From a virus (taxonomy: Duplodnaviria > Caudoviricetes), in IMG/VR virus record IMGVR_UViG_3300017780_003104, positions 64,001 through 128,000 of that record: a stretch of DNA of 64,000 bases; one strand, given 5' to 3'. The notes beneath the pieces are model-generated. The model saw only the letters and a list, made by a program, of their open reading frames with translations, searched no databases and had not been told where the DNA came from. The position numbers were made by a program, and so were the translations under genes. Positions 68-61,384 of this stretch are shown here, in pieces. Numbering within the stretch: position 1 is the stretch's first letter; each line of letters starts with the position of its first letter.

Positions 68-523
68 ATGAAGACGTTTGTAAAACATAATTGGGTTAAT
101 ATATTGGTCGGAGTTATCGTAGCTGGCTGTGTTTCATATGGAATTAGTGGTTACGTCCCATATGATAAATCCTTAGCTTTATCAATCCCATTAATTTTAA
201 TGGGATTGTATTTCTTCGATAATAAAACCGTAGTTACTGAAGAATCGTCTAAATTACTTGAGATTTTAGATGAAACGGTTAAGGAACAAGCCACTATATT
301 AGACGAATACGAACAAATTTTCGATTCCCAATTGGTTAAATTGCCCTGTGTGTGCGGTGGAAATACCTTCGAAGGGTTATTTTCCCCAAATACCGAAAAT
401 GTGGTTGAATGTGAAAAATGTAAAAATATGTATCGAGTAAATATCAATTATGATACGGTATTAGTATCTAAGCCTTTGGATTTAAACCAAACCTTTGAGG
501 ATCTCGTTGGAAAAACTGATTAA
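68..523 (+). CDS. Hypothetical membrane protein with C-terminal Zn-ribbon
   Basis: Two N-terminal hydrophobic segments; CVC...CEKC cysteine pairs; preceded by TTGACA-N16-TATTTT-N6-ATG. Confidence 0.7.
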   Translation: MKTFVKHNWVNILVGVIVAGCVSYGISGYVPYDKSLALSIPLILMGLYFFDNKTVVTEESSKLLEILDETVKEQATILDEYEQIFDSQLVKLPCVCGGNTFEGLFSPNTENVVECEKCKNMYRVNINYDTVLVSKPLDLNQTFEDLVGKTD

Positions 524-541
524 TTAAAACCGAGTTATAAT
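520..541 (+). promoter_or_regulatory. Box promoter
   Basis: TTAATTAAAACCGAGT-TATAAT-N8-ATG550. Confidence 0.8.
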
Positions 542-549
542 AAGACCAT

Positions 550-780
550 ATGATAACGATAGAGAAGAAAAATGGTGAAGTTGTTGAGATGACAACAGAT
601 GAATTCAGCAGATGGATGTGTTTAGCTGAAGCATTCTACTTCATTGAAGAAAAAGCAAATGAACTTAAAATAGATGTATCAGATTTATTGAAACCTTTAG
701 CCATTGATGGATATATAAAGGAACGATTTGATGCAATGCGTCATGATATTGGTTGTGAGTTGGCACTTGGTAATCTATAA
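550..780 (+). CDS. Hypothetical protein
   Basis: 76-aa ORF directly downstream of a conserved box promoter. Confidence 0.7.
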   Translation: MITIEKKNGEVVEMTTDEFSRWMCLAEAFYFIEEKANELKIDVSDLLKPLAIDGYIKERFDAMRHDIGCELALGNL

Positions 781-1607
781 ATAGATTCCAATTCTAAATC
801 GATTGAACTTATGTAATCTTGTGTGATTACTGATTTAAACTCATTTAATAATTGGGTTTTATCTAAACCAAGCTCAGTAAACCCAATATAAAAGTTTCTA
901 AATCTTTCTTTTAAATTATTTGGATAAGTTGTACCATTCGGTCTTTCGAATTTATGCATCCATCGTAAAAATGGTAAGCATATTACTTTCTTACCATTTT
1001 TTCTATATTTTTCGTGGATATAGCCTTCCTCACCACCGAATCCTGTAAAATTCTTGTTGAAACCCAGCCAAGAATCAGTTCTACACGAAAAAAGACCCAT
1101 TCCTTGTGCTGGAATCTCAAATGGGGAGTCATCTATATTCATGCCCTTACCATCACTAGCCCATTTCCCCCACATATAACTCCCCCAATGACTTAAATCA
1201 AAATAAGTGCTGACGGTCTTATTATCATCGTATAATAATGGACCATGTAATAGATTTCCATCATCTTCACCAGATTCATAGTAATCTATTAATTTTTTCA
1301 AAGATCCCGGTTCAAGTAAAACGTGGGAATCGATACACATTGTATATGGAGTGTCTGATAATGCAAAAACTTTACCTTTTAGCATACTTGACTGGTAATT
1401 AACAAATGGAAGATACTGAATTGGCTCAGTTACCCAATTTAAAAGTTTTTTAACGGATTCGCCATGTTTACCAGTTGGATTATTATCAACTATTACAAAT
1501 TCGATATCATCCAACACTTCTTTATGATACATTCTAATCGATTGAATTGTAAAATAAAGTCCGTCAAAGTCATCGTGGGTTGCCACACCAATAGTAAGCT
1601 TTCTCAT
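741..1607 (-). CDS. Glycosyltransferase family 2 (GT-A fold)
   Basis: N-terminal LTIGVAT..D, FVIVDNN, DxH/DxD-like CIDSH, GMGLFS and GFGGEE motifs; TAAATA-N6-ATG upstream. Confidence 0.85.
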   Translation of the reverse strand: MRKLTIGVATHDDFDGLYFTIQSIRMYHKEVLDDIEFVIVDNNPTGKHGESVKKLLNWVTEPIQYLPFVNYQSSMLKGKVFALSDTPYTMCIDSHVLLEPGSLKKLIDYYESGEDDGNLLHGPLLYDDNKTVSTYFDLSHWGSYMWGKWASDGKGMNIDDSPFEIPAQGMGLFSCRTDSWLGFNKNFTGFGGEEGYIHEKYRKNGKKVICLPFLRWMHKFERPNGTTYPNNLKERFRNFYIGFTELGLDKTQLLNEFKSVITQDYISSIDLELESIYRLPSANSQPIS

Positions 1608-1619
1608 TGGTGATATTTA

Positions 1620-2483
1620 TTAAAATTTTAATGTTTTACAAGAATATAAACACACTGTGGTATTTGATGTAGTAGTGACCAGTGTTGGTGGTTGTGTGGT
1701 TGTTGTTTCTGGTGGTAATGTAGTGGTTACAGTTATATTTGAGAAATTATTCCCATCTCTCTCATTAGTATTGAATATTAAAGGTGTTGGAGAATTTGGT
1801 GATATCAGAATATTAGTTACATCATAGTTAGGCGAGACTATAAGCGTAGTTGGAACGGGCCAAGCACAACAATCCCTATCATCATCAATAGTCCCCCAGC
1901 TATCTTCACCTGATAATGGTATAGATGGGGTAGTAGTAGGACTATTAGGATCTATAGTTGTTGTAGTTGTTGTAGTGGGAGCTACAGTAGTAGTTGTAGT
2001 GGGAGCTACAGTAGTAGTTGTAGTGGGAGCTACAGTAGTAGTTGTAGTGGGAGCTACAGTAGTAGTTGTAGTGGGAGCTACAGTAGTAGTTGTAGTAGTT
2101 GTGGGTGAAGGAATCTTCAATACATTCCAAAGATCTATTAGATTTTTATCAAAGTCATATACAGAACTTAATGGGATTGCTGACCCCATTCCAAATGCTC
2201 CAAATTTAGTAATACTAAATTCGAGGGGGTAACGTCCACTCCTTCTTCCATTGCTCGCCATGAAATACATATTAGCAAGTGGAGGATCGAATATTGGAAC
2301 ATATGACGAACTTAATAATATATTACCACTGAGACTTGTACTTACATTATATACATAATGAGTGTCAGAATTAACTATGCTATTAATTACACCATCACTA
2401 CTAGATAATAAAGACGAAGCTGTTTGGGACCATCCAAAAGCTGATCCAGACGAAGTAGAAGTTTTGAATATACCAAATGCCAT
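1620..2483 (-). CDS. Thr/Pro-rich (mucin-like) putative virion protein
   Basis: (VAPTTTTT)x5 tract, CC pair, second Thr tract, C-terminal CLYSCKTLKF; located in tail-appendage operon. Confidence 0.7.
   Translation of the reverse strand: MAFGIFKTSTSSGSAFGWSQTASSLLSSSDGVINSIVNSDTHYVYNVSTSLSGNILLSSSYVPIFDPPLANMYFMASNGRRSGRYPLEFSITKFGAFGMGSAIPLSSVYDFDKNLIDLWNVLKIPSPTTTTTTTVAPTTTTTVAPTTTTTVAPTTTTTVAPTTTTTVAPTTTTTTTIDPNSPTTTPSIPLSGEDSWGTIDDDRDCCAWPVPTTLIVSPNYDVTNILISPNSPTPLIFNTNERDGNNFSNITVTTTLPPETTTTQPPTLVTTTSNTTVCLYSCKTLKF
1969..2088. repeat. Perfect 24-bp tandem repeat x5 (GTTGTAGTGGGAGCTACAGTAGTA)
   Basis: Read directly; encodes VAPTTTTT on the minus strand. Confidence 0.95.
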
Positions 2484-2486
2484 TAT

Positions 2487-4803: not shown

Positions 4804-4810
4804 CTTATAA

Positions 4811-31283: not shown

Positions 31284-31316
31284 ATAATTATATTTATCCA
31301 TAAATAGTAATATATT

Positions 31317-33098: not shown

Positions 33099-33107
33099 AT
33101 ATAATAA

Positions 33108-33689
33108 ATGAACATCCAACAAAGCGTTTTAAACAAGGCCCGTCAGGACAAATTTATACTTGTGTTTGACTTACCTCCTATACTAAAGCCAATCGCCAAA
33201 AAATATGACAGGAATAATAGAACAATTATACCGGATAGTGTTCAATTTTCGGTGTTTGGAACTATTATACCAGAAGTAGCCGTAAAGGGTGTCGAGAATA
33301 GATATGCGGGTTCGACCTTATATATATCATCTTTTAGTAAGGATTCCCCACCACCAGTCAATATAAAGTTCAACGTTGACTCGATGTATAATAATTATTT
33401 CACTATATGGTCTTGGTTAAATTTATTACATGATCATAAAACTGGAATATATAATGAAAGAGGATTAATACCAGAAGATGCTAATTTTAATGATTATATG
33501 ACAGATTTATCAGTATATGGTCTTGATGAATTTGGTAAAAAGAGAATACACTTCAAATACATAAAAGCTTTCGTGACAAGTCTAGATGAAATAACTTATA
33601 ATCAAAAATCAGAGCAAGGTGAAGAGATCGAATCTGGTTTTACATTCCTTTATAGCCAGATGCACGTTGAAATTTTAAACGAAAATTGA
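33108..33689 (+). CDS. Tail terminator/completion protein (gp3-like, tube fold)
   Basis: IPEV...FNVD..NNYFTIWSWL..TDLSVYGLD..F..FVTSL pattern; position next to sheath. Confidence 0.6.
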   Translation: MNIQQSVLNKARQDKFILVFDLPPILKPIAKKYDRNNRTIIPDSVQFSVFGTIIPEVAVKGVENRYAGSTLYISSFSKDSPPPVNIKFNVDSMYNNYFTIWSWLNLLHDHKTGIYNERGLIPEDANFNDYMTDLSVYGLDEFGKKRIHFKYIKAFVTSLDEITYNQKSEQGEEIESGFTFLYSQMHVEILNEN

Positions 33690-33692
33690 ATT

Positions 33693-33738
33693 TGTTATTT
33701 ATCTTTTGGAAAGTTTATCAATTGAAAGATAAATAACA
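33693..33738. repeat. 14-bp perfect inverted repeat containing the sheath late promoter
   Basis: TGTTATTTATCTTT (33693-33706) / AAAGATAAATAACA (33725-33738), 18-nt spacer. Confidence 0.85.
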
Positions 33739-33740
33739 TT

Positions 33741-45451: not shown

Positions 45452-45676
45452 ATGTCAAATGCTAAAGACCATGTGAAATATAAGATTTCCAGACAGAATG
45501 ACGGCACTTATGCAATCTTAAAAAAAAGTATAAATGGAAAAAACGTTGACATCCATTCAACTCATGATACATATGATGAAGCGAAGGATGAATTGACTGA
45601 TATTCATCACAAACCCAATCAGGTGGAGACAATGATATTCTTAAATGACCTGAAAGATTCAATAAAAAATATATGA
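45452..45676 (+). CDS. Hypothetical protein
   Basis: TAAATA-N6-ATG; coupled to next gene. Confidence 0.6.
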   Translation: MSNAKDHVKYKISRQNDGTYAILKKSINGKNVDIHSTHDTYDEAKDELTDIHHKPNQVETMIFLNDLKDSIKNI

Positions 45677-46758
45677 ACGTAAAAGAGCAAGTAATACAGG
45701 CAAGACATAATGGTTATACATATAGTCAAATAACAGACCATTTTGGTATAGCTAAGTCAACAGCCCAAGGTTGGTATGGTAAGTATATAGAAGATCTAGG
45801 TGAAAATGTGACACAAGGATATTATGAACATAGTGCTCCCGTCGTTAATGCTTATGTCAACGACAATCTCCAAAGAGATAAGCCACAGCGATTTAAAAAA
45901 AGTGAAGATGAGGTTCTCGAATTTCTTTCCCAATTAGCACCTATTAAAGTTTCACCCCGTTATGAAAAAGAGTCAAAAATGACTTTAAATGATTATGCGG
46001 TTGTTGGATCTGATTTCCATTTTGGTTGTCATGATAATAAGGCTATTGATATCTTTCTAGAGACGATCTTTCAATTGAAACCAAAGACTATTATTCTCAA
46101 TGGCGATACCATGGATTTCCTAGCGATTTCAAAGTATCCCAAAGATATGAAGCATAATTGGTCCTTACAGACTGAACGTGTTGAATATCATGCATTCTTG
46201 GATGAATTGATTAATATTTCGGGCGGTGCTGAAATATTTGAAACTGTATCTAATCACTCCGGTCAAAGTATTGGTGGTAGATGGAGACGGTACTTAGCAG
46301 ATAGAATTGGCGAACTTGCATGTTTACCAGAAATCACTGAAACATTATCATACGAAAATGTGTTTATGGGCGATTACAAAAATAGAATTAAACATGTTGA
46401 TTACGTCGATTTGAATGGATTGATTGTTACACACGGGGAAACCGTTCGAAAAAATGGTGGAGCATCTGCCAGAGGAGAAATTGATAAGTGGCACACTTCT
46501 ATATTACATGGTCATACACACAGAATCGGGGCAACTTGCCAGAGAATTCCGACAATCGCTGGAAGAGAAGAAAAACAATTAATTGGAATTGAGGGTGGGT
46601 GTTTGTGTGATTTAAAGGCACTATATGGGTCTGCCATGAATTGGCAACAAGGATTCAATATTGTATCACTTGCAGAAGATACCTTCGGGGTAGAGCAAGT
46701 TTACATCAACAATGGGGTAGCGAATATTTCCACTCTTGGGGCAACTATTAAGTCTTGA
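45673..46758 (+). CDS. Calcineurin-like metallophosphoesterase with N-terminal HTH
   Basis: SDFH, NGDTMD, SNH, THG, HGHTHR motifs; YTYSQI..FGIAKSTAQGW HTH. Confidence 0.85.
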   Translation: MNVKEQVIQARHNGYTYSQITDHFGIAKSTAQGWYGKYIEDLGENVTQGYYEHSAPVVNAYVNDNLQRDKPQRFKKSEDEVLEFLSQLAPIKVSPRYEKESKMTLNDYAVVGSDFHFGCHDNKAIDIFLETIFQLKPKTIILNGDTMDFLAISKYPKDMKHNWSLQTERVEYHAFLDELINISGGAEIFETVSNHSGQSIGGRWRRYLADRIGELACLPEITETLSYENVFMGDYKNRIKHVDYVDLNGLIVTHGETVRKNGGASARGEIDKWHTSILHGHTHRIGATCQRIPTIAGREEKQLIGIEGGCLCDLKALYGSAMNWQQGFNIVSLAEDTFGVEQVYINNGVANISTLGATIKS

Positions 46759-46782
46759 CATTAATTAAAACCGAATCATGAT
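46755..46782 (+). promoter_or_regulatory. Box promoter with -35
   Basis: TTGACA-TTAATTAAAACCGAAT-CATGAT-N6-ATG46789. Confidence 0.85.
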
Positions 46783-46788
46783 CGAGAC

Positions 46789-47298
46789 ATGGAATTTTTA
46801 ATATCTAATATAGGCGAGGAGTGGATGGATCTGGTTAATGAGTTTCCAGAATTCATTCTGGAACTGTCTCCATACACCAATGAGTGGTATTGTGAACATG
46901 TATTATATGCCAAGAATTTTAATCGTATTCCACCATCAAAGGAACTTATATGTAATCTTAGATACGGATTCGAATGTGGTATTGGATGGAAAAATATTAT
47001 TCGTGACTATTTCTTTCAAATTAGAAATCTATTGAATACCGCCAAAGAGAACGGAGACGAGATTCATTATAAGACATTTATTTTTAAAGAAAAATTTGGA
47101 GAACTTCGGGATCAGGGGGATTTCTATGGACCCGCTAGGATAGAATATTGGGACGATTACGTTAAATTGGATAAAATCTTATTATCGAAGTCTGTATCGG
47201 TATGTGAAGTTTGTGGGGATGATGGTGCATTAATGAGAAGAGGTGGTCGGTTAAAAACTGTATGCCCTCAACATGCAGTTGAGAATGATTATAAATAA
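46789..47298 (+). CDS. Hypothetical protein with C-terminal Zn-ribbon-like CxxC
   Basis: FECGIGW, KEKFGELR, CEVCG..G..TVC; box promoter upstream. Confidence 0.7.
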   Translation: MEFLISNIGEEWMDLVNEFPEFILELSPYTNEWYCEHVLYAKNFNRIPPSKELICNLRYGFECGIGWKNIIRDYFFQIRNLLNTAKENGDEIHYKTFIFKEKFGELRDQGDFYGPARIEYWDDYVKLDKILLSKSVSVCEVCGDDGALMRRGGRLKTVCPQHAVENDYK

Positions 47299-47321: not shown

Positions 47322-48215
47322 ATGATTCCATTTAATTTATTCTTAGAACGAAAACAAAGAAATCCTCTTAGGAAAGAGGAATTGGCTGCGTCTGGAAGCG
47401 AAGATATTATGTCACCGAAATTCTGGGAGACATATAGAACATATTATAGAAAATATCCAGTAGAATCTATGCCAGATCCTTCTGACCAAGTTATTAAGAG
47501 AAAATATGATGATTTATTTAAATCATCAGAAGCTTTAGCCGAAAAGTATTTGGATTCTGAGATAATGAAAATTATCAATAAACTCAAAAGACCAACCACT
47601 AAGGAATATAAAAAGGTATATGAGTATCAAGGAGTTCAAGTATTTGTAGATGAGGTAAATGTCGAAGATACTAATTATGCTCCGGGGTCATATAATTATA
47701 GAATGGTTAAACATAATGTATTAGTCATGTTGACATATGTTAGGGATATATTGCCAAATAGAAAACCTAGAATAGTTATAACTAGTTTAGCAAAAAACCC
47801 ACACACAAAAGATTCATATGATCCAAGCAATCCATCTGCTGGTATGGCATATAGTAAATTAATTTATATTGATGAGAACCATATGGATGATTCTGTATAT
47901 TATGTACATGAATATGCTCATTGGGTTGCTGATCTAATACCCGCACAAACACAAGAAATGCTAATTAAAGCATTTAAGAAATTTATCGATTTATATTATA
48001 AGAAACAAAATCTTAAAAAGTCTCAAGATAGACAAAAAGAATTAACGGATTCTCAGAGAATTAAGATTGCAGCAAAGTTAGGATTCCCCGAATACGGACT
48101 GACCAACCATGATGAATTCTTTGCAGTATTAATTGAAAATTGGAAACAATTACCTAATAATAAAATGACATATAAATTTAAATCTTTGGTTAAGAATGTA
48201 ATAACAAGGCTATAA
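47322..48215 (+). CDS. Zincin-like metallopeptidase domain late protein
   Basis: HEYAH plus downstream DEFFAV; TAAATA-N5-ATG. Confidence 0.65.
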   Translation: MIPFNLFLERKQRNPLRKEELAASGSEDIMSPKFWETYRTYYRKYPVESMPDPSDQVIKRKYDDLFKSSEALAEKYLDSEIMKIINKLKRPTTKEYKKVYEYQGVQVFVDEVNVEDTNYAPGSYNYRMVKHNVLVMLTYVRDILPNRKPRIVITSLAKNPHTKDSYDPSNPSAGMAYSKLIYIDENHMDDSVYYVHEYAHWVADLIPAQTQEMLIKAFKKFIDLYYKKQNLKKSQDRQKELTDSQRIKIAAKLGFPEYGLTNHDEFFAVLIENWKQLPNNKMTYKFKSLVKNVITRL

Positions 48216-48219
48216 TAGA

Positions 48220-48411
48220 ATGAAAGTAATACACGAAGGAGTAATTGGAAGTCATAGTTTCCAAATGGTAGATAATACAACGATTGAGGTTTGGAGTGAT
48301 TTTGATAACGATCAACCAGAATCTTACATATTTGTAAATGAGGGGGCTGTAAATGATGAAAAGTCATTTCATGCGGAAATTTCATATTGGTACATGAAAA
48401 ATGTGGGGTAA
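48220..48411 (+). CDS. Hypothetical protein
   Basis: 63-aa ORF. Confidence 0.55.
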   Translation: MKVIHEGVIGSHSFQMVDNTTIEVWSDFDNDQPESYIFVNEGAVNDEKSFHAEISYWYMKNVG

Positions 48412-48616
48412 ATCATCAACTGAATCTTGGTATATTGAGGAGAATGAAAAACTCCGAGAATATTTAAAATGGACACTTGAAATGTTGAAACATTTTCCCA
48501 TGGAAGCTTCTCATGAAGGTGGTTGCTCTCCACCAATGACTCCTTGCGATGGGGGATGTTCAGCCGCATACCATTTCCATAAAACTATTAATGAAATTGA
48601 GGATATGTTGAATTAA
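48401..48616 (+). CDS. Hypothetical protein
   Basis: 71-aa ORF; C..P..PC.GGC cluster. Confidence 0.55.
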   Translation: MWGKSSTESWYIEENEKLREYLKWTLEMLKHFPMEASHEGGCSPPMTPCDGGCSAAYHFHKTINEIEDMLN

Positions 48617-48634
48617 TTAAAACCGAAATATCGT
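48613..48634 (+). promoter_or_regulatory. Box promoter
   Basis: TTAATTAAAACCGAAA-TATCGT-N6-ATG48641. Confidence 0.85.
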
Positions 48635-48640
48635 AGGCCC

Positions 48641-49555
48641 ATGAACTTGGACCTAAAACAAACACCATTTATGAAGGTGTCGGATATTGTAATACCTGAC
48701 ACCTTCTATAATAGGCTTAAAACGGGCATAGATGCGCTTGATAACATATTTGGTATGGGATTACTTCCCGGATCAACAATCACGCTCAAGGCACTACCGG
48801 GAGTCGGAAAGAGTGTATTCTCTTTAACTCTATCTGAGATGCTTACCGATTGTGGTTATAAAGTTGGATATACTTCGGGCGAGGAGGATATTCGTCAACT
48901 TGCGTATAATTGTAAGAGACTTGGGATTGAAAATACTGAAATTAGCAATATCACTGATATTGACGAAATTTTAAGTATAATGCCAGATAAGGATTTCATG
49001 GTTATTGATTCATTTCAAACATTAACGACAACTAGAAAATTAAATTCTAGAGAAAGGATCAAATATTTCAATGACAATCTTGTAAGAGTCGCTAAGGAAC
49101 ACGAATGCACCATATTATTCGTCGTTCAAGAATTGGCCGATGGAACGATCAGAGGTGGCACTTCCCTATTATATGCGGTGGATGTCAATATGCAGATATT
49201 AAAAAACAAGGAAGATAAAAATTCTAGAATTTTTGATGTTTACAAGAATAGATTTGGTGCTACAATGCAACACGAAGCGAGATTCGGACCTTCAGGTTAT
49301 GAATTTGTGGGTGAATATAGCGAAACAGAAGATATGGAAGACGAAAAAACTAAGAAAGCCCCAGTAAAGGAGAGTCGAAAATCCGATATCCTTAGTATGG
49401 ATGAGCCACCATTAATTACCGTTAAACGTGTAATGGATGAATTAGATATCAAAGAACAAACTGCAAAATTGCTCCTATCTGAACTTGAGAATGATATGAA
49501 ACTTATCAAGTATGGTAGAGGGATGGATGCTATTTGGAAATTTTATAAACAATGA
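48641..49555 (+). CDS. RadA/Sms-like RecA-family ATPase (no Zn finger or Lon domain)
   Basis: ALPGVGKS, YTSGEE, VIDSFQ, GGTSLLYAVDV, KNRFG. Confidence 0.82.
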   Translation: MNLDLKQTPFMKVSDIVIPDTFYNRLKTGIDALDNIFGMGLLPGSTITLKALPGVGKSVFSLTLSEMLTDCGYKVGYTSGEEDIRQLAYNCKRLGIENTEISNITDIDEILSIMPDKDFMVIDSFQTLTTTRKLNSRERIKYFNDNLVRVAKEHECTILFVVQELADGTIRGGTSLLYAVDVNMQILKNKEDKNSRIFDVYKNRFGATMQHEARFGPSGYEFVGEYSETEDMEDEKTKKAPVKESRKSDILSMDEPPLITVKRVMDELDIKEQTAKLLLSELENDMKLIKYGRGMDAIWKFYKQ

Positions 49556-49773
49556 GTGATATAACACTACCAATAGAAATGGCTCAATTATCAGTTGAGG
49601 AAATTGGCTCAATTTTCTTAGTTATGGCTATGCCTAAGTTATCCGAGGAAACTAGAATCAGATTATCCAAGGATGAGGTTTTTACCAAAACACTAAAATC
49701 AATGATAGAGGAAGAAATTATAATCATCAATGAAGATGGTGGTGGTGTAGATATAGATTTAACTTGGTTATGA
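49552..49773 (+). CDS. Hypothetical protein
   Basis: 73-aa coupled ORF. Confidence 0.6.
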   Translation: MSDITLPIEMAQLSVEEIGSIFLVMAMPKLSEETRIRLSKDEVFTKTLKSMIEEEIIIINEDGGGVDIDLTWL

Positions 49774-50309
49774 GCAATGAATGGCACGGCGGTAAGGGTA
49801 GTAAATCTAGAGTGTCTGATATGAAGTCATATTGGAATAGTTCACTTTGGGATAAAAGTAATACAGAAAAAAAAGATATGACAGAAATAAAAAGATTCTT
49901 ATTTTTAGATGATGTGAGAGATGTGCCACATGCATATCTATGGGATGATAATATATCGTTATTATCTAAATCTGGAATTCCTGCTTATAAATGGGATATC
50001 GTAAGATCTTACGATGAATTTGTAAGTTATATTGATTTAAAGGGAATACCAGATGTTGTTAGTTTTGATAATGATTTGTGGGATGTTTCACATGAACTTG
50101 CTACAAATCCTAGTAGTGAAGAACTCACAAAACAATTCTTGATGGAAGGTTGGGAAGACTTTTCAATTAAAACCGGAGCACACTGCGCGGAGTATTTGGT
50201 GGCTGCGTGTAAATTAAAAAATACTCCAATACCAACTTACTATGTCCATTCTGCGAATGGAACTGCAAGACCAATAATTAGAAAGATTTTAGAAAATGGG
50301 AAATTATAA
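49770..50309 (+). CDS. Cyclic-phosphate-processing receiver-like (cREC) domain protein
   Basis: LFLDDVR, VRSYDEF, VSFDNDL, KTG..CA.YL, VHSAN..R motifs. Confidence 0.8.
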   Translation: MSNEWHGGKGSKSRVSDMKSYWNSSLWDKSNTEKKDMTEIKRFLFLDDVRDVPHAYLWDDNISLLSKSGIPAYKWDIVRSYDEFVSYIDLKGIPDVVSFDNDLWDVSHELATNPSSEELTKQFLMEGWEDFSIKTGAHCAEYLVAACKLKNTPIPTYYVHSANGTARPIIRKILENGKL

Positions 50310-51024: not shown

Positions 51025-51593
51025 AAAAGAAATTATTTTTAGATTTTGATAATACATTGGCACACTCGCTATATGCTTCCAATAAAAAACATGCAGATGA
51101 TTTAATTTACGAGTATGGTGAGGTGTTTGAAGGTGAAAAATTCCATCTTAGGGGTGATGGGTGGATGACTACATTTAAAAGATCATGGACTGACGAACTT
51201 CTAAGATTCTCTAGAGAATTATACGGTGAGGATAATGTATATATTTTAACAACTGGAACAGTAGACTACATCGGATGGTGTAATGTTGTATTAAAATTGG
51301 AATTTGATCCTAATACGAATATTTTCGGTAGAGAGGATATAGTCAGACAAGATATTCATCCAAAATTCGTAGATACATTCAATGTATTAGTCGATGATCT
51401 GTTATACTATGATCATAGTATAGGTGATAGGTGTAAGGTAAATTTCCTAAACAAGATACCACCAGAACAATTCATTAACGTGGAGTATTTTAGTGTGCAT
51501 CAAACATCAACCCTAATAAGTGATAAGGATTATATCAAAGAACTCAAATGTAGAATTGTAGAAGCATTCGAATCAATTAAAACCGAAATATAA
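51021..51593 (+). CDS. HAD-superfamily phosphatase (NIF/FCP1-like)
   Basis: LFLDFDNTL motif I; LVDD motif IV. Confidence 0.75.
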   Translation: MKKKLFLDFDNTLAHSLYASNKKHADDLIYEYGEVFEGEKFHLRGDGWMTTFKRSWTDELLRFSRELYGEDNVYILTTGTVDYIGWCNVVLKLEFDPNTNIFGREDIVRQDIHPKFVDTFNVLVDDLLYYDHSIGDRCKVNFLNKIPPEQFINVEYFSVHQTSTLISDKDYIKELKCRIVEAFESIKTEI

Positions 51594-51594
51594 T
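51573..51594 (+). promoter_or_regulatory. Box promoter
   Basis: TCAATTAAAACCGAAA-TATAAT-N6-ATG51601. Confidence 0.85.
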
Positions 51595-51600
51595 TGCGAC

Positions 51601-51789
51601 ATGATCAAAGAACTATTACGAGAAATTAAGGAAACTTGGGGATATGAGACTGAGGAGTTGAATGATATCCGAGAAAAAATGGAAGAAGTAGGACATTCAT
51701 ATTTTTGGATGGGTTATGGTGAACGAACAGAGGAAATGCGAGAAGCTTCTGTATTTACAGGATACGGAAAACCGGAAGACTTTGAATAA
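51601..51789 (+). CDS. Hypothetical protein
   Basis: 62 aa; box promoter N6-ATG. Confidence 0.65.
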   Translation: MIKELLREIKETWGYETEELNDIREKMEEVGHSYFWMGYGERTEEMREASVFTGYGKPEDFE

Positions 51790-52951: not shown

Positions 52952-53221
52952 ATGAAAATTAACATAAGTCCGACTAGTGGTGATATAACTATATTTGCTG
53001 AATCTAGTGATTCCTTTAATAGTTTTGGTGGGGAGTATTGGGATGATATATCACATTATGCTGAATATGGCTTAGATTTAGGTGATATATCAATCAATAG
53101 CATATCACCTAAGCAATTTAAACAGTTGGCGATTTCTATGATCAATCATCTCATGATTAATGGTCATGATTTTTCAATTGGTGATGATGTAAATGGATCA
53201 TATATTAGATCCATTAATTAA
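52952..53221 (+). CDS. Hypothetical protein
   Basis: 89-aa ORF. Confidence 0.55.
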   Translation: MKINISPTSGDITIFAESSDSFNSFGGEYWDDISHYAEYGLDLGDISINSISPKQFKQLAISMINHLMINGHDFSIGDDVNGSYIRSIN

Positions 53222-53235
53222 AACCGAAGTATACT
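53214..53235 (+). promoter_or_regulatory. Box promoter
   Basis: TTAATTAAAACCGAAG-TATACT-N6-ATG53242. Confidence 0.85.
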
Positions 53236-53241
53236 ATACCC

Positions 53242-54345
53242 ATGAGATTACCCACACTTTATTCCCGAACAAATACCGGAGCAGTCCAAACATGGACAGT
53301 TGAAATCCAAGGCGACTCATATAGAACCATTCATGGTCAATTAGATGGTAAATTACAAATCACTGAGTGGACTGTTTGTATTGTCACTAATGAAGGTCGT
53401 GCTAATGAGAGAAATCCCGAGCAACAGAGTATATTCGAATCTACTGCGATGTTCACTAAAAAGAAAGATACTGGATACTTTGAAAGACTTGAAGATATCG
53501 ATACATCTTTTTATGTTGAACCCATGCTTGCTAAAAAGTGGGAAGATCGTAAAGACAAGGTAAAATTTCCTGTATATTGTCAACCAAAACTTGATGGTAT
53601 GCGAGCAGTTATCACTAGAAATGGTGCTAAGTCTCGTAATGGTAAACCTTGGGTGACTATTCCACACATTTTAGAAGCATTAGAACCTGTCTTTGACAAG
53701 TATCCAGACTTGGTATTGGATGGTGAACTATATAACCATGATTTGAAGTTTGACTTTAATAAGATTTCGTCTTTGATTAAGAAGACGAAACCAACGCCAC
53801 AGGATTTGGAAGAAAGTGCTAAACTTGTGCAATTCTGGTGGTATGATACAGCTAGTGATAAACACACATTTACTCAACGTGCTAGTTGGATTAATACTTT
53901 ACATGATCGTTATGAATTGGATGAGTGTATTCAAATGGTATGCACCCATAAAGTGAGAGATAATAGTGAACTTGATGCATGGTATGATACATATCTCGCA
54001 CATGGCTATGAAGGTCAAATGATTCGTCTTGATACACCTTATGAATTTAAGCGTTCTGCCAATCTTCTCAAGAGAAAAGAGTTTCAAGATGAAGAGTATA
54101 AGATTCTCGATATCGTGGAAGGTGTTGGTAATCGTGCGGGATTAGCTGGTGCTATGGTTTTTGAAAATGAACTAGGACACCAATTCAATTCCAATATTAA
54201 GGGGGATAGAAAATATCTAAAAGAATTGTTGGTATATGCAGATTCATATATTGGGAAATTGGCAACAGTTGTATTCTTTAATAAAACTCCCGATAGGCAA
54301 ATTCCACGTTTCCCATTCGTTCATAGTATCCGCGATTTTGAATAA
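53242..54345 (+). CDS. ATP-dependent DNA ligase
   Basis: Motif I QPKLDGMR, LDGELY, EGQMIR, RS..LLKRK, PRFP. Confidence 0.95.
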   Translation: MRLPTLYSRTNTGAVQTWTVEIQGDSYRTIHGQLDGKLQITEWTVCIVTNEGRANERNPEQQSIFESTAMFTKKKDTGYFERLEDIDTSFYVEPMLAKKWEDRKDKVKFPVYCQPKLDGMRAVITRNGAKSRNGKPWVTIPHILEALEPVFDKYPDLVLDGELYNHDLKFDFNKISSLIKKTKPTPQDLEESAKLVQFWWYDTASDKHTFTQRASWINTLHDRYELDECIQMVCTHKVRDNSELDAWYDTYLAHGYEGQMIRLDTPYEFKRSANLLKRKEFQDEEYKILDIVEGVGNRAGLAGAMVFENELGHQFNSNIKGDRKYLKELLVYADSYIGKLATVVFFNKTPDRQIPRFPFVHSIRDFE

Positions 54346-54391: not shown

Positions 54392-55104
54392 AAAAATATG
54401 ATCATATATTAATAGAAGACGTAATCAAAGAATATGTAGAAGACTTATACTCCACCATTCAACTAGCAGAGAAATATAATGTTAGTGAATGGTGGATAGC
54501 TGATAGGTTGAAAAAAGCTGGAGTAAAAATAAGAAACCGTGGAGGTGGAGTTCATATGGTGGATATATCTGGAGAACGATTCGGATATTATACAGTAATA
54601 AACAAATTAGAAAAGGAGAATAATAATAGAGGTGCAATATGGCAGGTAGTATGTGACTGTGGTAATGTTCGTGAGGTTCTTAGTTATCACCTAAGATCTG
54701 GAGAATCGAAATCATGTGGAGATTGTTTAGAACATCATAATTGGAAAGGTGTTGGTGAGATGAGTGGAAATGATTTCGCTAATATTCGAAGAGGCGCAGA
54801 GAAACGAAATATGATATTTGATATAAGTAAGGAATATGTATGGGACTTATATTTAAAACAAGATAAAAAATGCGCTTTAACTGGATTAGATATAAGATTT
54901 GTGAGAGGATATGAAAACCATAGGAAAGCAGCAAAAACAGCATCTCTAGATAGAATAAATTCAAAATTGGGATATGTCAAGGGTAATGTTCAATGGATTC
55001 ATAAAGTGGTGAATATTATGAAATGGCACTTGGATGAAGATTACTTTATAGAAATGTGTAGAAAAGTAGTAGAATATAACGAAAGTGAAATCTCTATTAA
55101 TTAA
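54382..55104 (+). mobile_element. Free-standing homing endonuclease (His-Me finger/HNH-like)
   Basis: HTH N-terminus, VCDCG..SCGDC, CALTG, SLDRINSKLGYVKGNVQWIH..N.MK; own TAAATA-N5-ATG. Confidence 0.82.
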
Positions 55105-55118
55105 AACCGAAATACAAT
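55097..55118 (+). promoter_or_regulatory. Box promoter
   Basis: TTAATTAAAACCGAAA-TACAAT-N6-ATG55125. Confidence 0.85.
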
Positions 55119-55124
55119 ATCGAT

Positions 55125-55751
55125 ATGGTAGAATACCCATCAATACAGAATAGTTCAAAAGCCCCCCGTAAAGAATGTATAGCATTCGATAAACTTGATG
55201 GGTCTAATTTTAGAGCTAAATGGACTAAGAAACAAGGATTCTCTACGTTTGGAACTAGAACACAGTTGATAGATGAAACTACACCTTTTTGGTGTGATAT
55301 GGTTTATCGATTTAAGAATAATCTTAGCGAAACTTTAGAGAAGCTTATTCTTAAGGAATATCAAAATGAAAGAGAAGTGATAGTATTCGGTGAATATTTC
55401 GGGGAAAATAGTTTCGCTGGGAGGCACGAAGAAGAAGACCATAAAATTGTAGTATTCGATGTTTTAGTAGGACATAAGAATCGAAAATTTATTAAACCTA
55501 GAGATTTTGTAAAATTACTTTCAGATAAGATTGAGATACCTAGAATAGTTTATGAGGGTAATCTAAATGATGATCTTATTAAGAGAGTCAGATCAGATGA
55601 ATTTAATACCTTTGAGGGAGTTATCTGTAAAGGAACACAATCGGTAGGCAATGCTATGGGTGGTATATGGATGGCTAAGATTAAAACACAAAAATACCTA
55701 GATAGTCTTAAAACTAGATTTGGAGAAGATTGGGTGAAATACGCAGAATAA
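55125..55751 (+). CDS. RNA ligase (Rnl2-like nucleotidyltransferase, minimal)
   Basis: KLDGSN, FGEYFG, FDV, EGVI, AKIK motifs. Confidence 0.8.
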   Translation: MVEYPSIQNSSKAPRKECIAFDKLDGSNFRAKWTKKQGFSTFGTRTQLIDETTPFWCDMVYRFKNNLSETLEKLILKEYQNEREVIVFGEYFGENSFAGRHEEEDHKIVVFDVLVGHKNRKFIKPRDFVKLLSDKIEIPRIVYEGNLNDDLIKRVRSDEFNTFEGVICKGTQSVGNAMGGIWMAKIKTQKYLDSLKTRFGEDWVKYAE

Positions 55752-56151: not shown

Positions 56152-56387
56152 TTATAAATTCAATATCAGGGGATGACAATATCAATAAAGTTTTAAACGC
56201 ATCTTTATATGCCACCTTAAAGACATTAACTGCCGAAAAATATATAACTCCCGAACAGTCGAAGGAATTTGGGGAAAATTACGTTGCGGTCTTTGTAAAG
56301 AAGGACGGAGGATTTGTTGAATGGATGAAAGCTAAATTTGGAAAAACTTCTGATATGGTTGTAGTGATGAAAACGTTTGTTGATTAA
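56148..56387 (+). CDS. Hypothetical protein
   Basis: 79-aa coupled ORF. Confidence 0.55.
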   Translation: MIINSISGDDNINKVLNASLYATLKTLTAEKYITPEQSKEFGENYVAVFVKKDGGFVEWMKAKFGKTSDMVVVMKTFVD

Positions 56388-56401
56388 AACCGAAATATAA
56401 T
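56380..56401 (+). promoter_or_regulatory. Box promoter
   Basis: TTGATTAAAACCGAAA-TATAAT-N6-ATG56408. Confidence 0.85.
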
Positions 56402-56407
56402 CGCACC

Positions 56408-56626
56408 ATGAAAAGAAGTTTTTGGTTCCATTATAATAAGCCTGAATCCCGTAAAGTGGGAAAGCCTCAGATTACCGTTCACTATATGGGTGCTTGTCAC
56501 ATAGTTGACAATTTAAAATGTAATGTTCCAATAGCTGGAAAGCTTAGAAAGACACAACCCTTTTGGGTTATAGCTGGGAAAACATCTTCCATCGAATTTG
56601 AAGATGGATTAGCAACTATTAATTAA
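56408..56626 (+). CDS. Hypothetical protein
   Basis: 72 aa; flanked by two box promoters. Confidence 0.7.
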   Translation: MKRSFWFHYNKPESRKVGKPQITVHYMGACHIVDNLKCNVPIAGKLRKTQPFWVIAGKTSSIEFEDGLATIN

Positions 56627-56640
56627 AACCGAAATATAAT
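56619..56640 (+). promoter_or_regulatory. Box promoter
   Basis: TTAATTAAAACCGAAA-TATAAT-N6-ATG56647. Confidence 0.85.
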
Positions 56641-56646
56641 CACACT

Positions 56647-58029
56647 ATGAAATTGAAAATCACAGAAGGAGCAGATCCAAATTATTTGGCAACTGTTGTA
56701 AAAGTTCCCACTATTAAGGAACATCCAAATGCTGATAAATTGGAAATTGTCGATGTTTTTGGTAATTCTATTATTATTGGTAAGGGTTCTTACACTGAAG
56801 GTGAACTCGTTGTTTACTTTCCAATCGAGAGTGCCATTTCTCTTAAGTTTTTGTCTTGGGCAAACCTAAGAGATAGTGCCGAAATGAATGCAGATGGTAA
56901 GACTAAGGGTTTCTTTGGAAAACATGGCCGAGTCAAGGCTATTAGTCTTAGAAGCATTCCATCACAAGGCTTTCTATTTAAAGTATCTGAACTAGTAAAA
57001 TATTATGAAATTGATGAAAACACGTTTAATCTTGGGGATACTTTTGATACTGTCGGTGATGATATCTTGGTTAAGAAATATATTAAAGGAACCGACAGAG
57101 GACAAGGTGAACAAAACGTAAAGAAGACCCGTGTTCCGAAATGGTTAGATAAGACCATTGGAGTTATGCCAAGACCTATTCGTAGAAATGCTTATATTTT
57201 TATTAATTCTTGGTATAATCGAAATAGCGAAGGTATTAAATCTCAAATCGTAGATGGAGAATTTAGATTCCACTACAAGACAGAACAACTTGGCCGAAAT
57301 ATTTTCATATTGAAGCCTGAAGATTCTATAACTATATCTAGTAAGATGCATGGAACTTCTGCAATCTTATCTAATATCGTTTGTAAGAAACCATTCAATC
57401 CAATTAGAAGTATTGGAAATAAATTTGGTGCGAAGATTCCATCGACTGAATATAAATTTGTGTATAGTTCAAGGTCTGTATTGAAAAATCGTCGTGATGG
57501 AAAATTTACAGACGATGTTTGGGGTATTATTGCGTCTGAATTAAAGGATGAAATTCCAGAAGGTTATACTGTATATGGCGAAATTGTGGGGTATACTCCC
57601 GGTGGTGCTATGGTTCAGAAGAATTACGATTATGGTATAACTAGGGGTAAGTGTGAATTTTTTGTATATCGAATCACATATAATCTATCCGATGGAAAGG
57701 TTAAGGAATTGGAATGGTATGAAATCGAAGAATTTTGTTATGAGCATGGTATGAGGAATGTTAAGGTTTATTACAATGGTTTGGCAAGTGATCTATTTGA
57801 TATTCCACTTGATAATGATTGGCATGAAACCTTTTTATCTAAACTCAAAGATAATCACCTTGATAATGTTTGTGAACAATGCACCACAGGTTCTATTAAT
57901 GAGGGTATTGTTCTTAGAATTGAAAGTAGTGAAAAGAAAACTGCATTAAAATTTAAAAGTCCTAAGTTCTTGATTCAAGAGTCGGCAGCAAGAGATAATA
58001 ACGAGGAAGACATGGAGGACGATAGTTAA
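56647..58029 (+). CDS. RNA ligase, DRB0094-like family
   Basis: N-terminal IKEHPNADKLE..G..VVYFP..S, KMHGTS motif I, YGEIVG, EGIVLR. Confidence 0.85.
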   Translation: MKLKITEGADPNYLATVVKVPTIKEHPNADKLEIVDVFGNSIIIGKGSYTEGELVVYFPIESAISLKFLSWANLRDSAEMNADGKTKGFFGKHGRVKAISLRSIPSQGFLFKVSELVKYYEIDENTFNLGDTFDTVGDDILVKKYIKGTDRGQGEQNVKKTRVPKWLDKTIGVMPRPIRRNAYIFINSWYNRNSEGIKSQIVDGEFRFHYKTEQLGRNIFILKPEDSITISSKMHGTSAILSNIVCKKPFNPIRSIGNKFGAKIPSTEYKFVYSSRSVLKNRRDGKFTDDVWGIIASELKDEIPEGYTVYGEIVGYTPGGAMVQKNYDYGITRGKCEFFVYRITYNLSDGKVKELEWYEIEEFCYEHGMRNVKVYYNGLASDLFDIPLDNDWHETFLSKLKDNHLDNVCEQCTTGSINEGIVLRIESSEKKTALKFKSPKFLIQESAARDNNEEDMEDDS

Positions 58030-58033
58030 AATT

Positions 58034-58147
58034 ATGATAGAACAAATTATTAGAGGATTATTTGGATGTATAGGTGCAACAATTACATTGTATTGCTTAT
58101 GTACAGTATATACAAAACATATAAAGAAAGAGGATGATGAAATCTGA
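58034..58147 (+). CDS. Small membrane protein (37 aa, not in ORF track)
   Basis: MIEQIIRGLFGCIGATITLYCLCTVYTKHIKKEDDEI; fills the gap between two genes. Confidence 0.5.
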   Translation: MIEQIIRGLFGCIGATITLYCLCTVYTKHIKKEDDEI

Positions 58148-58724
58148 AGATTACGGATATATAGTGAAGAATAACTTGTGCCTTTTTCAAAAAGGTCCAC
58201 TATCTCAATGGTGGGGCGGTTTTAAAGGACAGGATTCATCTTTTAAGGTTGATATAAATGAATTATATAGTTATTATACTGGTGACAATAGTGGATTACT
58301 AAGTAATATCTCAAGGGAATATAAACACTTATATTTTAATTGTTGTGAGCAATGGATGATGGCATGTAAGGCTATTTTATTTGATGATGTTGATACCTTT
58401 AAATTGATAATGGATGAAAAATCACCATCTAAACAGAAAAATTTAGGCAGAGTCGTATCAAACTATGATCAAGAAGTTTGGGAGATTTATAAATACAGTA
58501 TTGTTCTCCGAGGTAATGAACATAAATTTGAACAAAATCCAGAATTGAAAGAATTCTTAATGAGTTTCAATTATTTTACTATATTTGCCGAAGCTGCGCC
58601 ATGGGATAAAGTTTGGGGAATTGGTCTAGGTCCAGAAGACCCCAAATCATTAGATATTAATACATGGCAAGGTGAGAATCTTTTAGGTAAAGTATTAATG
58701 GATGTGAGACGTAGTATTGATTAA
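58134..58724 (+). CDS. NADAR family protein (YbiA-like)
   Basis: LSQW, EQWMM..KA.LF.D, KNLGR.V, GNEHKF.QN, EAAPWD.VWGIG, G.NLLG..LM. Confidence 0.92.
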   Translation: MMKSEDYGYIVKNNLCLFQKGPLSQWWGGFKGQDSSFKVDINELYSYYTGDNSGLLSNISREYKHLYFNCCEQWMMACKAILFDDVDTFKLIMDEKSPSKQKNLGRVVSNYDQEVWEIYKYSIVLRGNEHKFEQNPELKEFLMSFNYFTIFAEAAPWDKVWGIGLGPEDPKSLDINTWQGENLLGKVLMDVRRSID

Positions 58725-58738
58725 AACCGAATTATAAT
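58717..58738 (+). promoter_or_regulatory. Box promoter
   Basis: TTGATTAAAACCGAAT-TATAAT-N6-ATG58745. Confidence 0.85.
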
Positions 58739-58744
58739 AACGAT

Positions 58745-59434
58745 ATGAGTGAAGTATATCAAATAATTACAGACGAAGCAGCCCTTCGAGAATATATCGA
58801 ATGGTTGCCTGATTGTAAAGAAAACGAGCAGTTTTATTTGACACTGTTTTCCCGAAAGAAGTATTGTCCAGAGATGCCTTGGATCAAAAGTGACAAAGGA
58901 CAACTTGCTAGAAAGACTAGTTCTAAAGATTATCTTTATGATAAGATCGCTCAAATGGAGTGTAAGGTTGGTGCTTATAGAATGGAGGGCAATCCCGTTC
59001 CACAAAAAGCACTGGCTTGTTATGTATCAGTGAATCCGAGAGACTTGTGGAGAGCTACGCTTCGTAGTATCGGTAAGTTGGCTACGGTGCTGGAATGTGG
59101 TGGTAGGAACTCCAATCCCCATCAAGAAGTAATGTCTGAAATTCAGAAGAACACGGGTACACGTAAGTATATCGGATTTGATATCGATGATAAAGACGAA
59201 ACACTAATTCGGAATTGTATCGATACCGCTAGTGGTATGTGTGATGTGGTAGAAACCCGTGGTGGTTATCATCTATTTGTCCATAAGGATAAAGTTGATA
59301 AGATCAAGGGTAAGAACACTTGGTATCAGGAGTTGTCTAAACATTCTGATGTTCAAGGTGATATCATGTCACCTCCTTGTGGAACATACCAAGGTGGGCA
59401 TACGGTCAGGTTTAAATATAGGTGTAAAGACTAA
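58745..59434 (+). CDS. Putative AEP/PrimPol-like nucleotidyltransferase
   Basis: hhhDxD (IGFDIDD) and T.GG.H (ETRGGYH) motifs. Confidence 0.5.
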   Translation: MSEVYQIITDEAALREYIEWLPDCKENEQFYLTLFSRKKYCPEMPWIKSDKGQLARKTSSKDYLYDKIAQMECKVGAYRMEGNPVPQKALACYVSVNPRDLWRATLRSIGKLATVLECGGRNSNPHQEVMSEIQKNTGTRKYIGFDIDDKDETLIRNCIDTASGMCDVVETRGGYHLFVHKDKVDKIKGKNTWYQELSKHSDVQGDIMSPPCGTYQGGHTVRFKYRCKD

Positions 59435-59438
59435 AGTT

Positions 59439-59837: not shown

Positions 59838-59843
59838 TCTAGC

Positions 59844-59871
59844 TTGACATTAATTAAAACCAAATTACAAT
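59844..59871 (+). promoter_or_regulatory. Box promoter with -35
   Basis: TTGACA-TTAATTAAAACCAAAT-TACAAT-N13-ATG59885. Confidence 0.85.
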
Positions 59872-59884
59872 ACGAGTCATCCTT

Positions 59885-60226
59885 ATGAAAATATATGATA
59901 TTGAAGCTTATATGGCCCCACCTATCGATAAGTGGTCAAAACTTATAGGGTTTCAATATATGAGAAAATCATATGCTGAAGGTGCATGGGCTATGCTTAA
60001 ATCGCATTATAACCAAAGGACTGAACATCGTCTATTATGTGATGGTGTGGCTGTTGAACAGGTTGGTAAACAAACAGTAAAGGTTAATTCTGTGGTTGTT
60101 GATATCAAAGTTTGTGAAAATTGCTTTCAAAAAGTTAATATAGATGATAATACTGGACACGGTATGTATTGCGACTATGTATATGGGCGAAGAGGGTGGC
60201 GACAATTAGGGGCATACGACGGTTAA
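59885..60226 (+). CDS. Hypothetical protein
   Basis: 113 aa; TTGACA-box-TACAAT promoter upstream. Confidence 0.65.
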   Translation: MKIYDIEAYMAPPIDKWSKLIGFQYMRKSYAEGAWAMLKSHYNQRTEHRLLCDGVAVEQVGKQTVKVNSVVVDIKVCENCFQKVNIDDNTGHGMYCDYVYGRRGWRQLGAYDG

Positions 60227-60231
60227 TTTAT

Positions 60232-60672
60232 ATGAACACAAAACAGGTAATAGTAATTCGAAAAGACCTCAATATGAGGAAGGGTAAGATGTGTGCTCAA
60301 GCTAGTCACGCATCTATGTCATTTTTAACAAAAGATGGATACCCTAAACATGACGTTGAATATGGTTCTGGGCATGAAAATGATTTTCATGCATTCTACT
60401 TCGCCAATTATTCTCTTCAAATAGAAAAACATTTTTATGAAATTGATCATTGGATTAAAAACTCCTTCCGTAAAATCTGCGTCTATGTAAATTCTGAAGA
60501 GGAATTAGATGCCCTTCACCAAAAGGCTCTTGACAAAGGACTCATATCACATATGATTATTGATAATGGAGTGACTGAATTCAATGGAGTTGCAACAAAG
60601 ACTTGTCTAGCAATCGGTCCCCATGAAGACTCCAAGTTTATTGGTTTGACTGACCATCTTCCTCTTCTTTAG
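60232..60672 (+). CDS. pth2: Peptidyl-tRNA hydrolase, Pth2 family
   Basis: KQVIVIRKDL.M.KGK..AQ.SHA, RKI, I.DNG.TE, T.LAIGP, TDHLPLL. Confidence 0.92.
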   Translation: MNTKQVIVIRKDLNMRKGKMCAQASHASMSFLTKDGYPKHDVEYGSGHENDFHAFYFANYSLQIEKHFYEIDHWIKNSFRKICVYVNSEEELDALHQKALDKGLISHMIIDNGVTEFNGVATKTCLAIGPHEDSKFIGLTDHLPLL

Positions 60673-61342
60673 GTTTCCAACCTTTATGAGATTTATGTCT
60701 ATCGGGTTTGGTGAAGAGTCTATGTATTATTCGGGCATTTAAATGATATTTGCGTGCAAATTCACACATATTTTCTCCGACGATAATATCTCCAAAATCC
60801 TTATGGGTCAAAACTCTTGTTTTTCTATTAAATTCAGATTCTGGGTATGATATATTGGCCGAGCACCACCCCTTCATCTGTTTCTTTTTCCCTTTAAGTA
60901 TCTTAGACATGGAAGATCGATCAACTCCGATATAATTAGAAGCCTCTGTCATCGAAGCAAAACTTATAATCTCACCAGTCTGAATATTTTTAATAGCACA
61001 GGGAATTTTTAATAATTCTGAACATCTATATTCATTTCCGAGGGTCATGTTGAAATTGGGTTTAATATTTGCGTTATATCTTTTAATATAAACTTCTTCT
61101 TTCAAAGCAATTTCATTATCTGTCAAATATGATAATTCCTCTATTATAGTGTAAATAAAATCAGACTTCCCATATTTATTGTAATGATTTTGTAGATATG
61201 GATTTTTATGTTTGTTGGTTTTAAGATAATATCTATGATTGCTCCATCTAATTTTTATATTTGTGGAATATCCGATATAAATTCTTCCCGTCGATACACT
61301 TTTAATATGATAAATTCCTCGAATTTGGGGTCCAATAGCCAT
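60638..61342 (-). mobile_element. Free-standing GIY-YIG homing endonuclease
   Basis: GIYHI..GRIYIGYS, E..YI, FN motif, NUMOD-like C-terminus; TAAATA-N5-ATG; 3' end overlaps pth2 antisense. Confidence 0.88.
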
Positions 61343-61356
61343 ACATTTATTTAGTC

Positions 61357-61384
61357 TTGACACTCATTAAAACCATGATAAAAT
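61357..61384 (+). promoter_or_regulatory. Degenerate box promoter with -35 at the edge of the GIY-YIG insertion
   Basis: TTGACA-CTCATTAAAACCATGA-TAAAAT. Confidence 0.7.

Follow-up and report, generated by a model that had tools for sequence, protein, structure and literature searches.

What reads a near-invariant box that occupies the place directly upstream of the -10 hexamer in promoter after promoter of a tailed virus? The question is raised by a stretch of 64,000 nucleotides, hereafter the window, which corresponds to bases 64001-128000 of the virus record IMGVR_UViG_3300017780_003104 (Duplodnaviria; Caudoviricetes), a genome of 211,724 bp with direct terminal repeats. An earlier note on the window had described 11 copies of a conserved box adjoining -10 hexamers, only three of them with a TTGACA at a 16-nt spacer and the rest without a -35, and had proposed as its reader a phage activator, a phage-encoded or modified sigma factor, or an unusual extended element of a host sigma. 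We find the description to hold, and the class to be larger than first claimed: about 70 genes of this uncultured freshwater T4-like phage are predicted to start from one near-invariant promoter, with a box of 13-15 bp, and to be expressed from leaderless messenger RNAs (mRNAs). We assign a probability of roughly 0.55 to the reading that these promoters form a middle-like class recognised by the host holoenzyme together with a phage-encoded adaptor.

The box is best described by the 15-mer TTRATTAAAACCGAA, of which the window holds seven exact copies, all on the + strand, against none in 100 shuffles of the window; three further copies carry one mismatch and another is degenerate (Table 1). 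Genome-wide, its 12-mer core occurs exactly 43 times, and not at all in the reversed control, and we found no occurrence of the core sequence in the relevant literature. When the genome was scanned with a weight matrix covering positions -29 to -7 at a cut-off of at least 12 bits, 70 sites were recovered, as opposed to 0.7 in shuffled sequence, 11 of them inside the window. The earlier note had missed one of the window copies, at 50163, and had not recognised that the geometry is fixed and leaderless or that the class extends across the genome and the clade. Of the sites, 64 are on the + strand, nearly all within 110.7-178 kb, and 6 on the - strand, in the transfer RNA (tRNA) region at 192-199 kb. 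Their spacing has a median of about 700 bp and no terminators were found between the cassettes. In the early, hyperplastic region, each gene or small set of genes has roughly one such promoter.

The layout of these promoters is box (-28 to -14), one free base, sigma70-type -10 hexamer (TAnnnT), six nucleotides, ATG. The information profile of the sites carries no signal upstream of -29; downstream of the box, hardly any variation is seen at T-12, A-11 and T-7, while hexamer positions 3 and 4 are variable (TATAAT in 28, TACAAT in 15 and TAAGAT in 11 of the 70 sites), a pattern that is the recognition signature of sigma70 region 2. A pyrimidine at -1 and an A at +1 mark the start region, and in 54 of the 70 sites this predicted +1 is the A of an ATG lying exactly 6 nt past the hexamer; in the window, the ATG follows the start of the box by exactly 28 nt in 8 of 11 copies, likewise 6 nt past the -10. 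The stop codon of the preceding open reading frame (ORF) sits within the promoter in 46 of the 70 cases, and sequences resembling a Shine-Dalgarno (SD) motif are rare throughout the genome. TTGAC is present in only four box promoters, and the TG at -15/-14 that defines an extended -10 element (TGn) in only one. Where TTGACA does occur in the window, it abuts the box directly and thereby defines the 16-nt spacer; such composites are also found outside the window. Because TTGACA sits at a 16-nt spacer in boxes of this type (type I) and at 17 nt in a type of box that is one nucleotide longer (type II, below), the box is compatible with normal sigma70 geometry.

A second class of promoters in the same genome shows what the host enzyme normally uses, namely TTGAC and TG. 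The arrangement TTGACn-N16-TAnnnT is strongly over-represented relative to spacers of 15, 17 and 18 nt, here and in relatives, and all genomes of the clade show an excess of the class; 26-66% of its sites carry TG at -15/-14, compared with a background of 7-10%. These host-type promoters head nucleotide-kinase, glycosyltransferase, UvsY-like and RNase H-like genes, as well as a large ORF at 47693-50263 that probably encodes a DNA polymerase. Most are leaderless; examples with the ATG at the predicted start or at most 3 nt from it are found at G000:C1:21513, 39488 and 181934 (G000 being the present genome), and at position 68 of the window an ATG occupies +1 of a TTGACA-N16(TG)-TATTTT promoter. 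A third, separate class consists of late TAAATA boxes, most often 5 nt before an ATG, and both gp55-like and gp33-like genes are present, the gp55-like late sigma gene adjoining a helicase-like ORF and another long ORF. All three classes thus seem to be built for leaderless mRNAs. Of the host signals, the box promoters retain the -10 hexamer alone, and the box would replace what the host enzyme normally needs, the -35 and TGn. This is the chief ground for thinking that the box makes up for the lost binding energy by a contact that involves neither region 4 nor region 3 of sigma.

To follow the box beyond this genome, relatives were collected by scans of viral contigs and by searches with marker proteins, and a large aquatic clade was found to share the promoter architecture. 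One of these, G001 (206.6 kb), is about 73% identical at the nucleotide level over 46% of the genome and carries 60 copies of the same box. G005 carries 39 copies with the core AATTAAAACCG and GG or AC at -15/-14, and G009, whose terminase is 69% identical, carries 73 copies of ATTAAAAACTA(G/A)A, which is one base longer and goes along with a 17-nt spacer when TTGAC is present. The box of G015 is of the G009 type, that of G016 reads AT(T/A)AAACACTA, and further contigs have TTAAAACTAGA, AATAAAACGTTAG and AAgAAACTAAAC; in all, at least five or six specificity types are seen in the clade, with lineage variants such as CCGAA, ACTAGA, CACTA and CGTTAG, and sister phages hold some 40-70 copies each. 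Both the box and the TTGACn-N16 class are missing from more distant relatives (terminase 46% identical). When orthologues are compared, the box ahead of a gene is mostly of the type found in the rest of that phage (19 of 23 in G001, 17 of 22 in G009, 10 of 18 in G016), and the host-type grammar is identical across all box types. That 50-70 sites per genome change together while the host grammar stays fixed fits co-evolution with a phage-encoded DNA-binding specificity, and such a concerted change would be hard to ascribe to a conserved host polymerase. Gene content at the box junctions differs among relatives. On the - strand of G005 (L138), at about 31300-34600, we also observed arrays of three to four boxes (TTAAATTAAAACC) without a -10, about 45 nt apart and flanking GC-rich inserted genes; these may be recombination-decayed cassettes or additional binding sites.

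The genes behind the box promoters are of a kind that points to pre-replicative functions. The genome is marked as T4-like by a T4-type large terminase and a tail sheath, and encodes rIIA/rIIB, denV, a Dda-like helicase, RNA ligases and 22 tRNA genes. Beyond the window, box promoters serve rIIA/rIIB, denV, the Dda-like helicase and tRNAs; within it, the regulon proposed in the earlier note stands as far as the RadA/KaiC-like ATPase, the DNA ligase and the two RNA ligases are concerned, whereas its label of an archaeo-eukaryotic primase (AEP)-like protein for 58745-59434 has no support from Pfam. This set (rIIA, rIIB, Dda-like helicase, denV, ligases, tRNAs) overlaps with the genes served by T4 middle promoters (PMC2988021). 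We found no near-identical record of a cultured phage: among cultured phages, the best matches of the large terminase, most of them from cyanophages, reach only about 31% identity, with one Rhizobium phage at 33.6%, neither psbA nor WhiB was found in the genome, and protein matches are split between actinophages (metallophosphoesterase) and pelagiphages (GP88-like). A box sub-class, ATTAAAACCAAA with the -10 TAAGAT, occupies the distal early region (G000:C1:172200-177850, +), where four promoters crowd into 300 bp and are followed by short GC-rich segments that may not code for protein; G009 has an analogous distal sub-class (TAAAAT/TAGAAT).

Table 1. Promoters and box copies of the window; positions count from its first letter.
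Feature	Position	Strand	Box (match to the 15-mer)	-35 and -10	Start and gene	Score (bits)
Box promoter	520..552	+	520-534 (one mismatch)	-10 TATAAT 536-541	predicted +1 548 = ATA; ATG 550; 76-aa ORF	29.0
Composite promoter	46755..46791	+	46761-46775 (exact)	TTGACA 46755-46760; weak -10 CATGAT	ATG 46789 at +1; 169-aa ORF, no family	
Box promoter	48613..48643	+	from 48613 (exact); TAA of upstream ORF inside box		ATG 48641 at +1; RadA/KaiC-like ATPase	
Internal/decayed box copy	50163..50184	+	TCAATTAAAACCGGA plus CACACT		inside ORF 49764-50309 (cREC_REC domain protein); no ATG after	20.4
Box promoter	51573..51603	+	from 51573 (one mismatch)		ATG 51601 at +1; 62-aa ORF	
Box promoter	53214..53244	+	from 53214 (exact)		ATG 53242 at +1; ATP-dependent DNA ligase	
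Box promoter	55097..55127	+	from 55097 (exact)		ATG 55125 at +1; RNA ligase PF09414	
Box promoter	56380..56410	+	from 56380 (exact)		ATG 56408 at +1; 72-aa ORF	
Box promoter	56619..56649	+	from 56619 (exact)		ATG 56647 at +1; OB-fold plus RNA ligase, 460 aa	
Box promoter	58717..58747	+	from 58717 (exact)		ATG 58745 at +1; 229-aa ORF, no Pfam family	
Composite promoter	59844..59887	+	59850-59864 (one mismatch; CCAAA variant)	TTGACA 59844-59849; -10 TACAAT	ATG 59885; 7-nt leader	
Host-type promoter with degenerate box in spacer	61357..61384	+	from 61363 (degenerate)	TTGACA 61357; 16 nt including TG; TAAAAT	next long ORF 61425	11.5

As we picture it, a host holoenzyme of the sigma70 type would read only the -10 hexamer, and the box at -28 to -14 would take the place of the -35 and TGn by being bound by a phage specificity factor, be it an activator or a sigma adaptor, that is made early from host-type promoters or carried in the virion. 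This factor would hold the polymerase on a promoter that is otherwise too weak, and transcription would start on the A of the ATG, giving each gene its own leaderless mRNA, which fits the near absence of SD motifs and of terminators between the cassettes. Before setting this against other ways of reading DNA, the signal has to be placed in transcription rather than translation. The position of the conserved sequence directly before start codons, its richness in A and U and the scarcity of SD sequences would also suit a non-SD translation initiation region acting in the RNA, an explanation that we hold to be very improbable: tRNA-Glu and a CUA-anticodon tRNA each have a box promoter 6-8 nt before their predicted 5' end, others lie farther upstream of other tRNAs and ahead of a Ro60-like gene, the hexamer shows the T-A...T conservation of promoters, and TTGACA stands upstream at promoter spacing. 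Because box promoters precede the tRNA genes and the Ro60-like gene, the box is best taken as a signal in transcription, and a translational role is essentially excluded. The CUA-anticodon tRNA itself (G000:C1:196159-196232, -; an amber-reading, 'Pyl'-type call by ARAGORN) lies in the phage tRNA cluster 8 nt downstream of a composite TTGACA and box promoter, and may be a suppressor tRNA.

Among transcriptional explanations, it is unlikely, though more probable than the other rivals, that the host holoenzyme in its unmodified form, with or without help from a general host factor, reads the box as a direct contact or DNA-shape element in place of the -35 and that the variants reflect adaptation to different hosts. 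The -10 is canonical, a TTGACA can stand at its proper distance beside the box, the search for a phage factor turned up none, the genome-wide leaderless design may mean a host with -10-only promoters, genes such as small hyperplastic-region ORFs and tRNAs are early in T4, and T4 early promoters carry consensus beyond the standard elements (PMC2988021). Against this, the host-type promoters rely on TTGAC and TG, neither of which the box promoters have, and the box differs base by base between sister phages whose host-type grammar is identical. In a scan of prokaryotes covering one genome from each of 185,579 species, clustered copies were found in no bacterial genome, and 105 scattered single matches came mostly from low-GC taxa, a test that is weak in that it counts exact matches only. 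Sigma70 holoenzyme is not known to read some 11 bp of spacer in a base-specific manner. Less probable still is a divergent phage sigma-like protein that replaces host sigma70 and reads the -10-like hexamer along with the box. Phage sigmas are often too divergent for Pfam, and G001 has a second, shorter gp55-like gene (114 aa; G001:C1:24657-25001) in its tRNA region; this paralogue is missing from G000, G015, G016 and the G011 fragment, and the fragments of G005 and G009 are without any gp55-like match. Moreover, the only sigma-like gene of the present genome is the gp55 homologue, which fits the late TAAATA class, and the T-A...T profile and the 16/17-nt spacing of TTGACA point to host sigma70. 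We consider it similarly improbable that the -10 alone drives these promoters and that the box is an operator for a phage repressor or a recombination cassette whose copies gene conversion keeps alike. One-per-gene cassettes in a variable region do resemble PeSL elements (PMC4122927), and both the G005 box copies without a -10 beside GC-rich inserts and the differing gene content at junctions would suit this reading. Yet, unlike in PeSLs, there is neither a stem-loop nor a conserved -35 or SD, gene conversion alone leaves unexplained both the exact conservation between phages about 73% identical in aligned DNA and the fixed register to the -10, and, with a host class that makes use of -35 and TG, a -10 by itself would probably not suffice for a promoter.

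The reading with a phage adaptor is thus favoured by box promoters that lack the -35 and TGn and by a box that changes in concert among sister phages; for the factor itself, no gene was found. When all six frames of the whole genome were searched for MotA and AsiA with PF09114, PF09158 and PF09010, nothing reached E<=1, although very divergent analogues could escape such a search, and no sigma gene beyond the gp55 homologue turned up. A phage RNA polymerase, of T7 type or multisubunit, was also not found in the genome, so the host polymerase must be used. Several considerations weigh against an adaptor: no candidate reader emerged, since each protein looked at either proved to have another identity or yielded an ambiguous picture; if the host naturally relies on promoters with only a -10, as Actinobacteria do, an activator is less needed; box types might conceivably differ because the hosts do; and a factor expressed only from a box promoter would require basal expression or delivery in the virion.

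The candidates fall short in different ways. A Sigma70_r4 match belongs to an HNH endonuclease. The 164-aa basic protein at G000:C1:38994-39488 (-), expressed from a host-type promoter and conserved in the clade, has a fold like that of T4 RNase H and flap endonucleases (FEN), aligning with 1tfr_A over 137 residues at VIA Z 9.5 and a root-mean-square deviation of 3.4; being only about half as large and having no conserved acidic cluster, it may be a non-catalytic FEN derivative. A 129-aa protein looks UvsY-like when compared by eye with the T4 sequence, and a 113-aa protein was dropped as it reads gp33-like by eye. The helix-turn-helix (HTH)-metallophosphoesterase at 45673-46758 was rejected, lying behind a conserved late TAAATA box and having a recognition helix that is constant across box types. 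It is the 361-aa product (HTH_28/HTH_23) of an operon at 45452-46758 (+) that also includes a 74-aa ORF; the TAAATA box ahead of this operon is conserved in most relatives checked, and the protein is clade-specific, its cultured homologues being mostly actinophage metallophosphoesterase or 'RDF' proteins. We also discarded YopX, 2H-phosphoesterase-like, kinase, phosphatase and rII proteins, and no family was found for small proteins of 63, 81, 103, 107 and 112 aa. There remains a 172-aa early protein, conserved in 208 relatives, whose model (predicted local distance difference test, pLDDT, 79) has no Foldseek matches and whose best VIA rows are the WYL domains of CapW, PafBC, BrxR and DriD at Z 3.8-4.3, within noise; we regard it as a lead, not a result.

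Set against known systems, the box class works like T4 middle promoters, with which it shares the host polymerase, a host -10 combined with a phage box that replaces the -35, dozens of copies and overlapping targets (rIIA/rIIB, dda, tRNAs, repair and nucleotide functions). In T4, however, the MotA box (a/t)(a/t)(a/t)TGCTTtA has its centre at -30, with 11-13 bp between it and the -10, and is read via AsiA-remodelled sigma70 (PMC2988021), whereas the present box (ATTAAAACCGAA at -25 to -14) lies one base from the -10, is unrelated to TGCTT and is much more strictly conserved than MotA boxes; it also lacks the TGn found in about half of the T4 middle promoters, its start codon is fixed at +1, and neither motA nor asiA was found. 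T4 early promoters ('uber' UP/-35/TGn/-10) differ from the box class by their good -35, TGn and UP element, while the host-type class of this genome does have -35 and TGn, and T4 late promoters (gp55/gp33/gp45) differ by their TATAAATA-type -10 and the absence of an upstream element.

The closest geometry is that of mycobacterial PafBC, in which a canonical -10 without a -35 is accompanied by a -26 element (-23 to -28) and the protein is wedged between the housekeeping sigma and the DNA (PMC8635444). The core of the box spans -26 to -16, a likeness in geometry only: PafBC is a cellular stress regulator that acts on tGTCgg-N10-TAnnnT, with about 10 free bases before the -10, where conservation of the box extends to -14, and an HTH-WYL protein was not recognised in this phage, the similarity of the 172-aa protein to WYL domains being within noise. 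As sequence and position differ and the defining proteins were not found, the box class is a member of neither the T4 MotA/AsiA nor the PafBC system. PeSLs, composed of a stem-loop terminator, a -35/-10 sigma70 promoter and an SD (PMC2839356, PMC4122927), are likewise near-identical, lineage-specific cassettes between small hyperplastic-region ORFs that may drive modular gene shuffling; the box cassettes, too, lie at gene junctions, with orthologue sets that differ among relatives and decayed copies at the G005 inserts, but they have no stem-loop, -35 or SD, and their conserved part is the spacer. Finally, leaderless genes of Actinobacteria, Deinococcus-Thermus and Thermus phages, with a -10 located 6-7 nt from the start and no SD, are alike in geometry but have no conserved spacer box, and in the present phage this geometry extends to three promoter classes (box, host-type and late TAAATA).

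Appropriation of sigma by MotA and AsiA is the textbook case of a phage re-aiming the host polymerase, and most environmental T4-like phages lack both genes, which raises the matter of how they time pre-replicative transcription; in pelagimyophages the prediction of middle promoters is reported to have been unsuccessful (PMC7029224). In the clade described here, the cis-element is sharply defined, and its specificity varies naturally among the promoters of orthologous genes. With only 28 bp holding a stop codon, a promoter and a start codon, it would also provide useful expression parts free of a ribosome-binding site if the reader were found, and the design of one leaderless promoter per gene bears on phage gene expression in hosts that make little use of SD sequences. 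We tentatively propose, with slightly less confidence than an even chance would warrant, that a large aquatic clade of T4-like phages devoid of MotA and AsiA runs its pre-replicative programme by means of an unrelated sigma adaptor that docks at the spacer and co-evolves with 50-70 sites, producing one leaderless mRNA per gene; if true, non-enteric T4-like phages would thereby have the 'middle mode' that they have seemed to lack.

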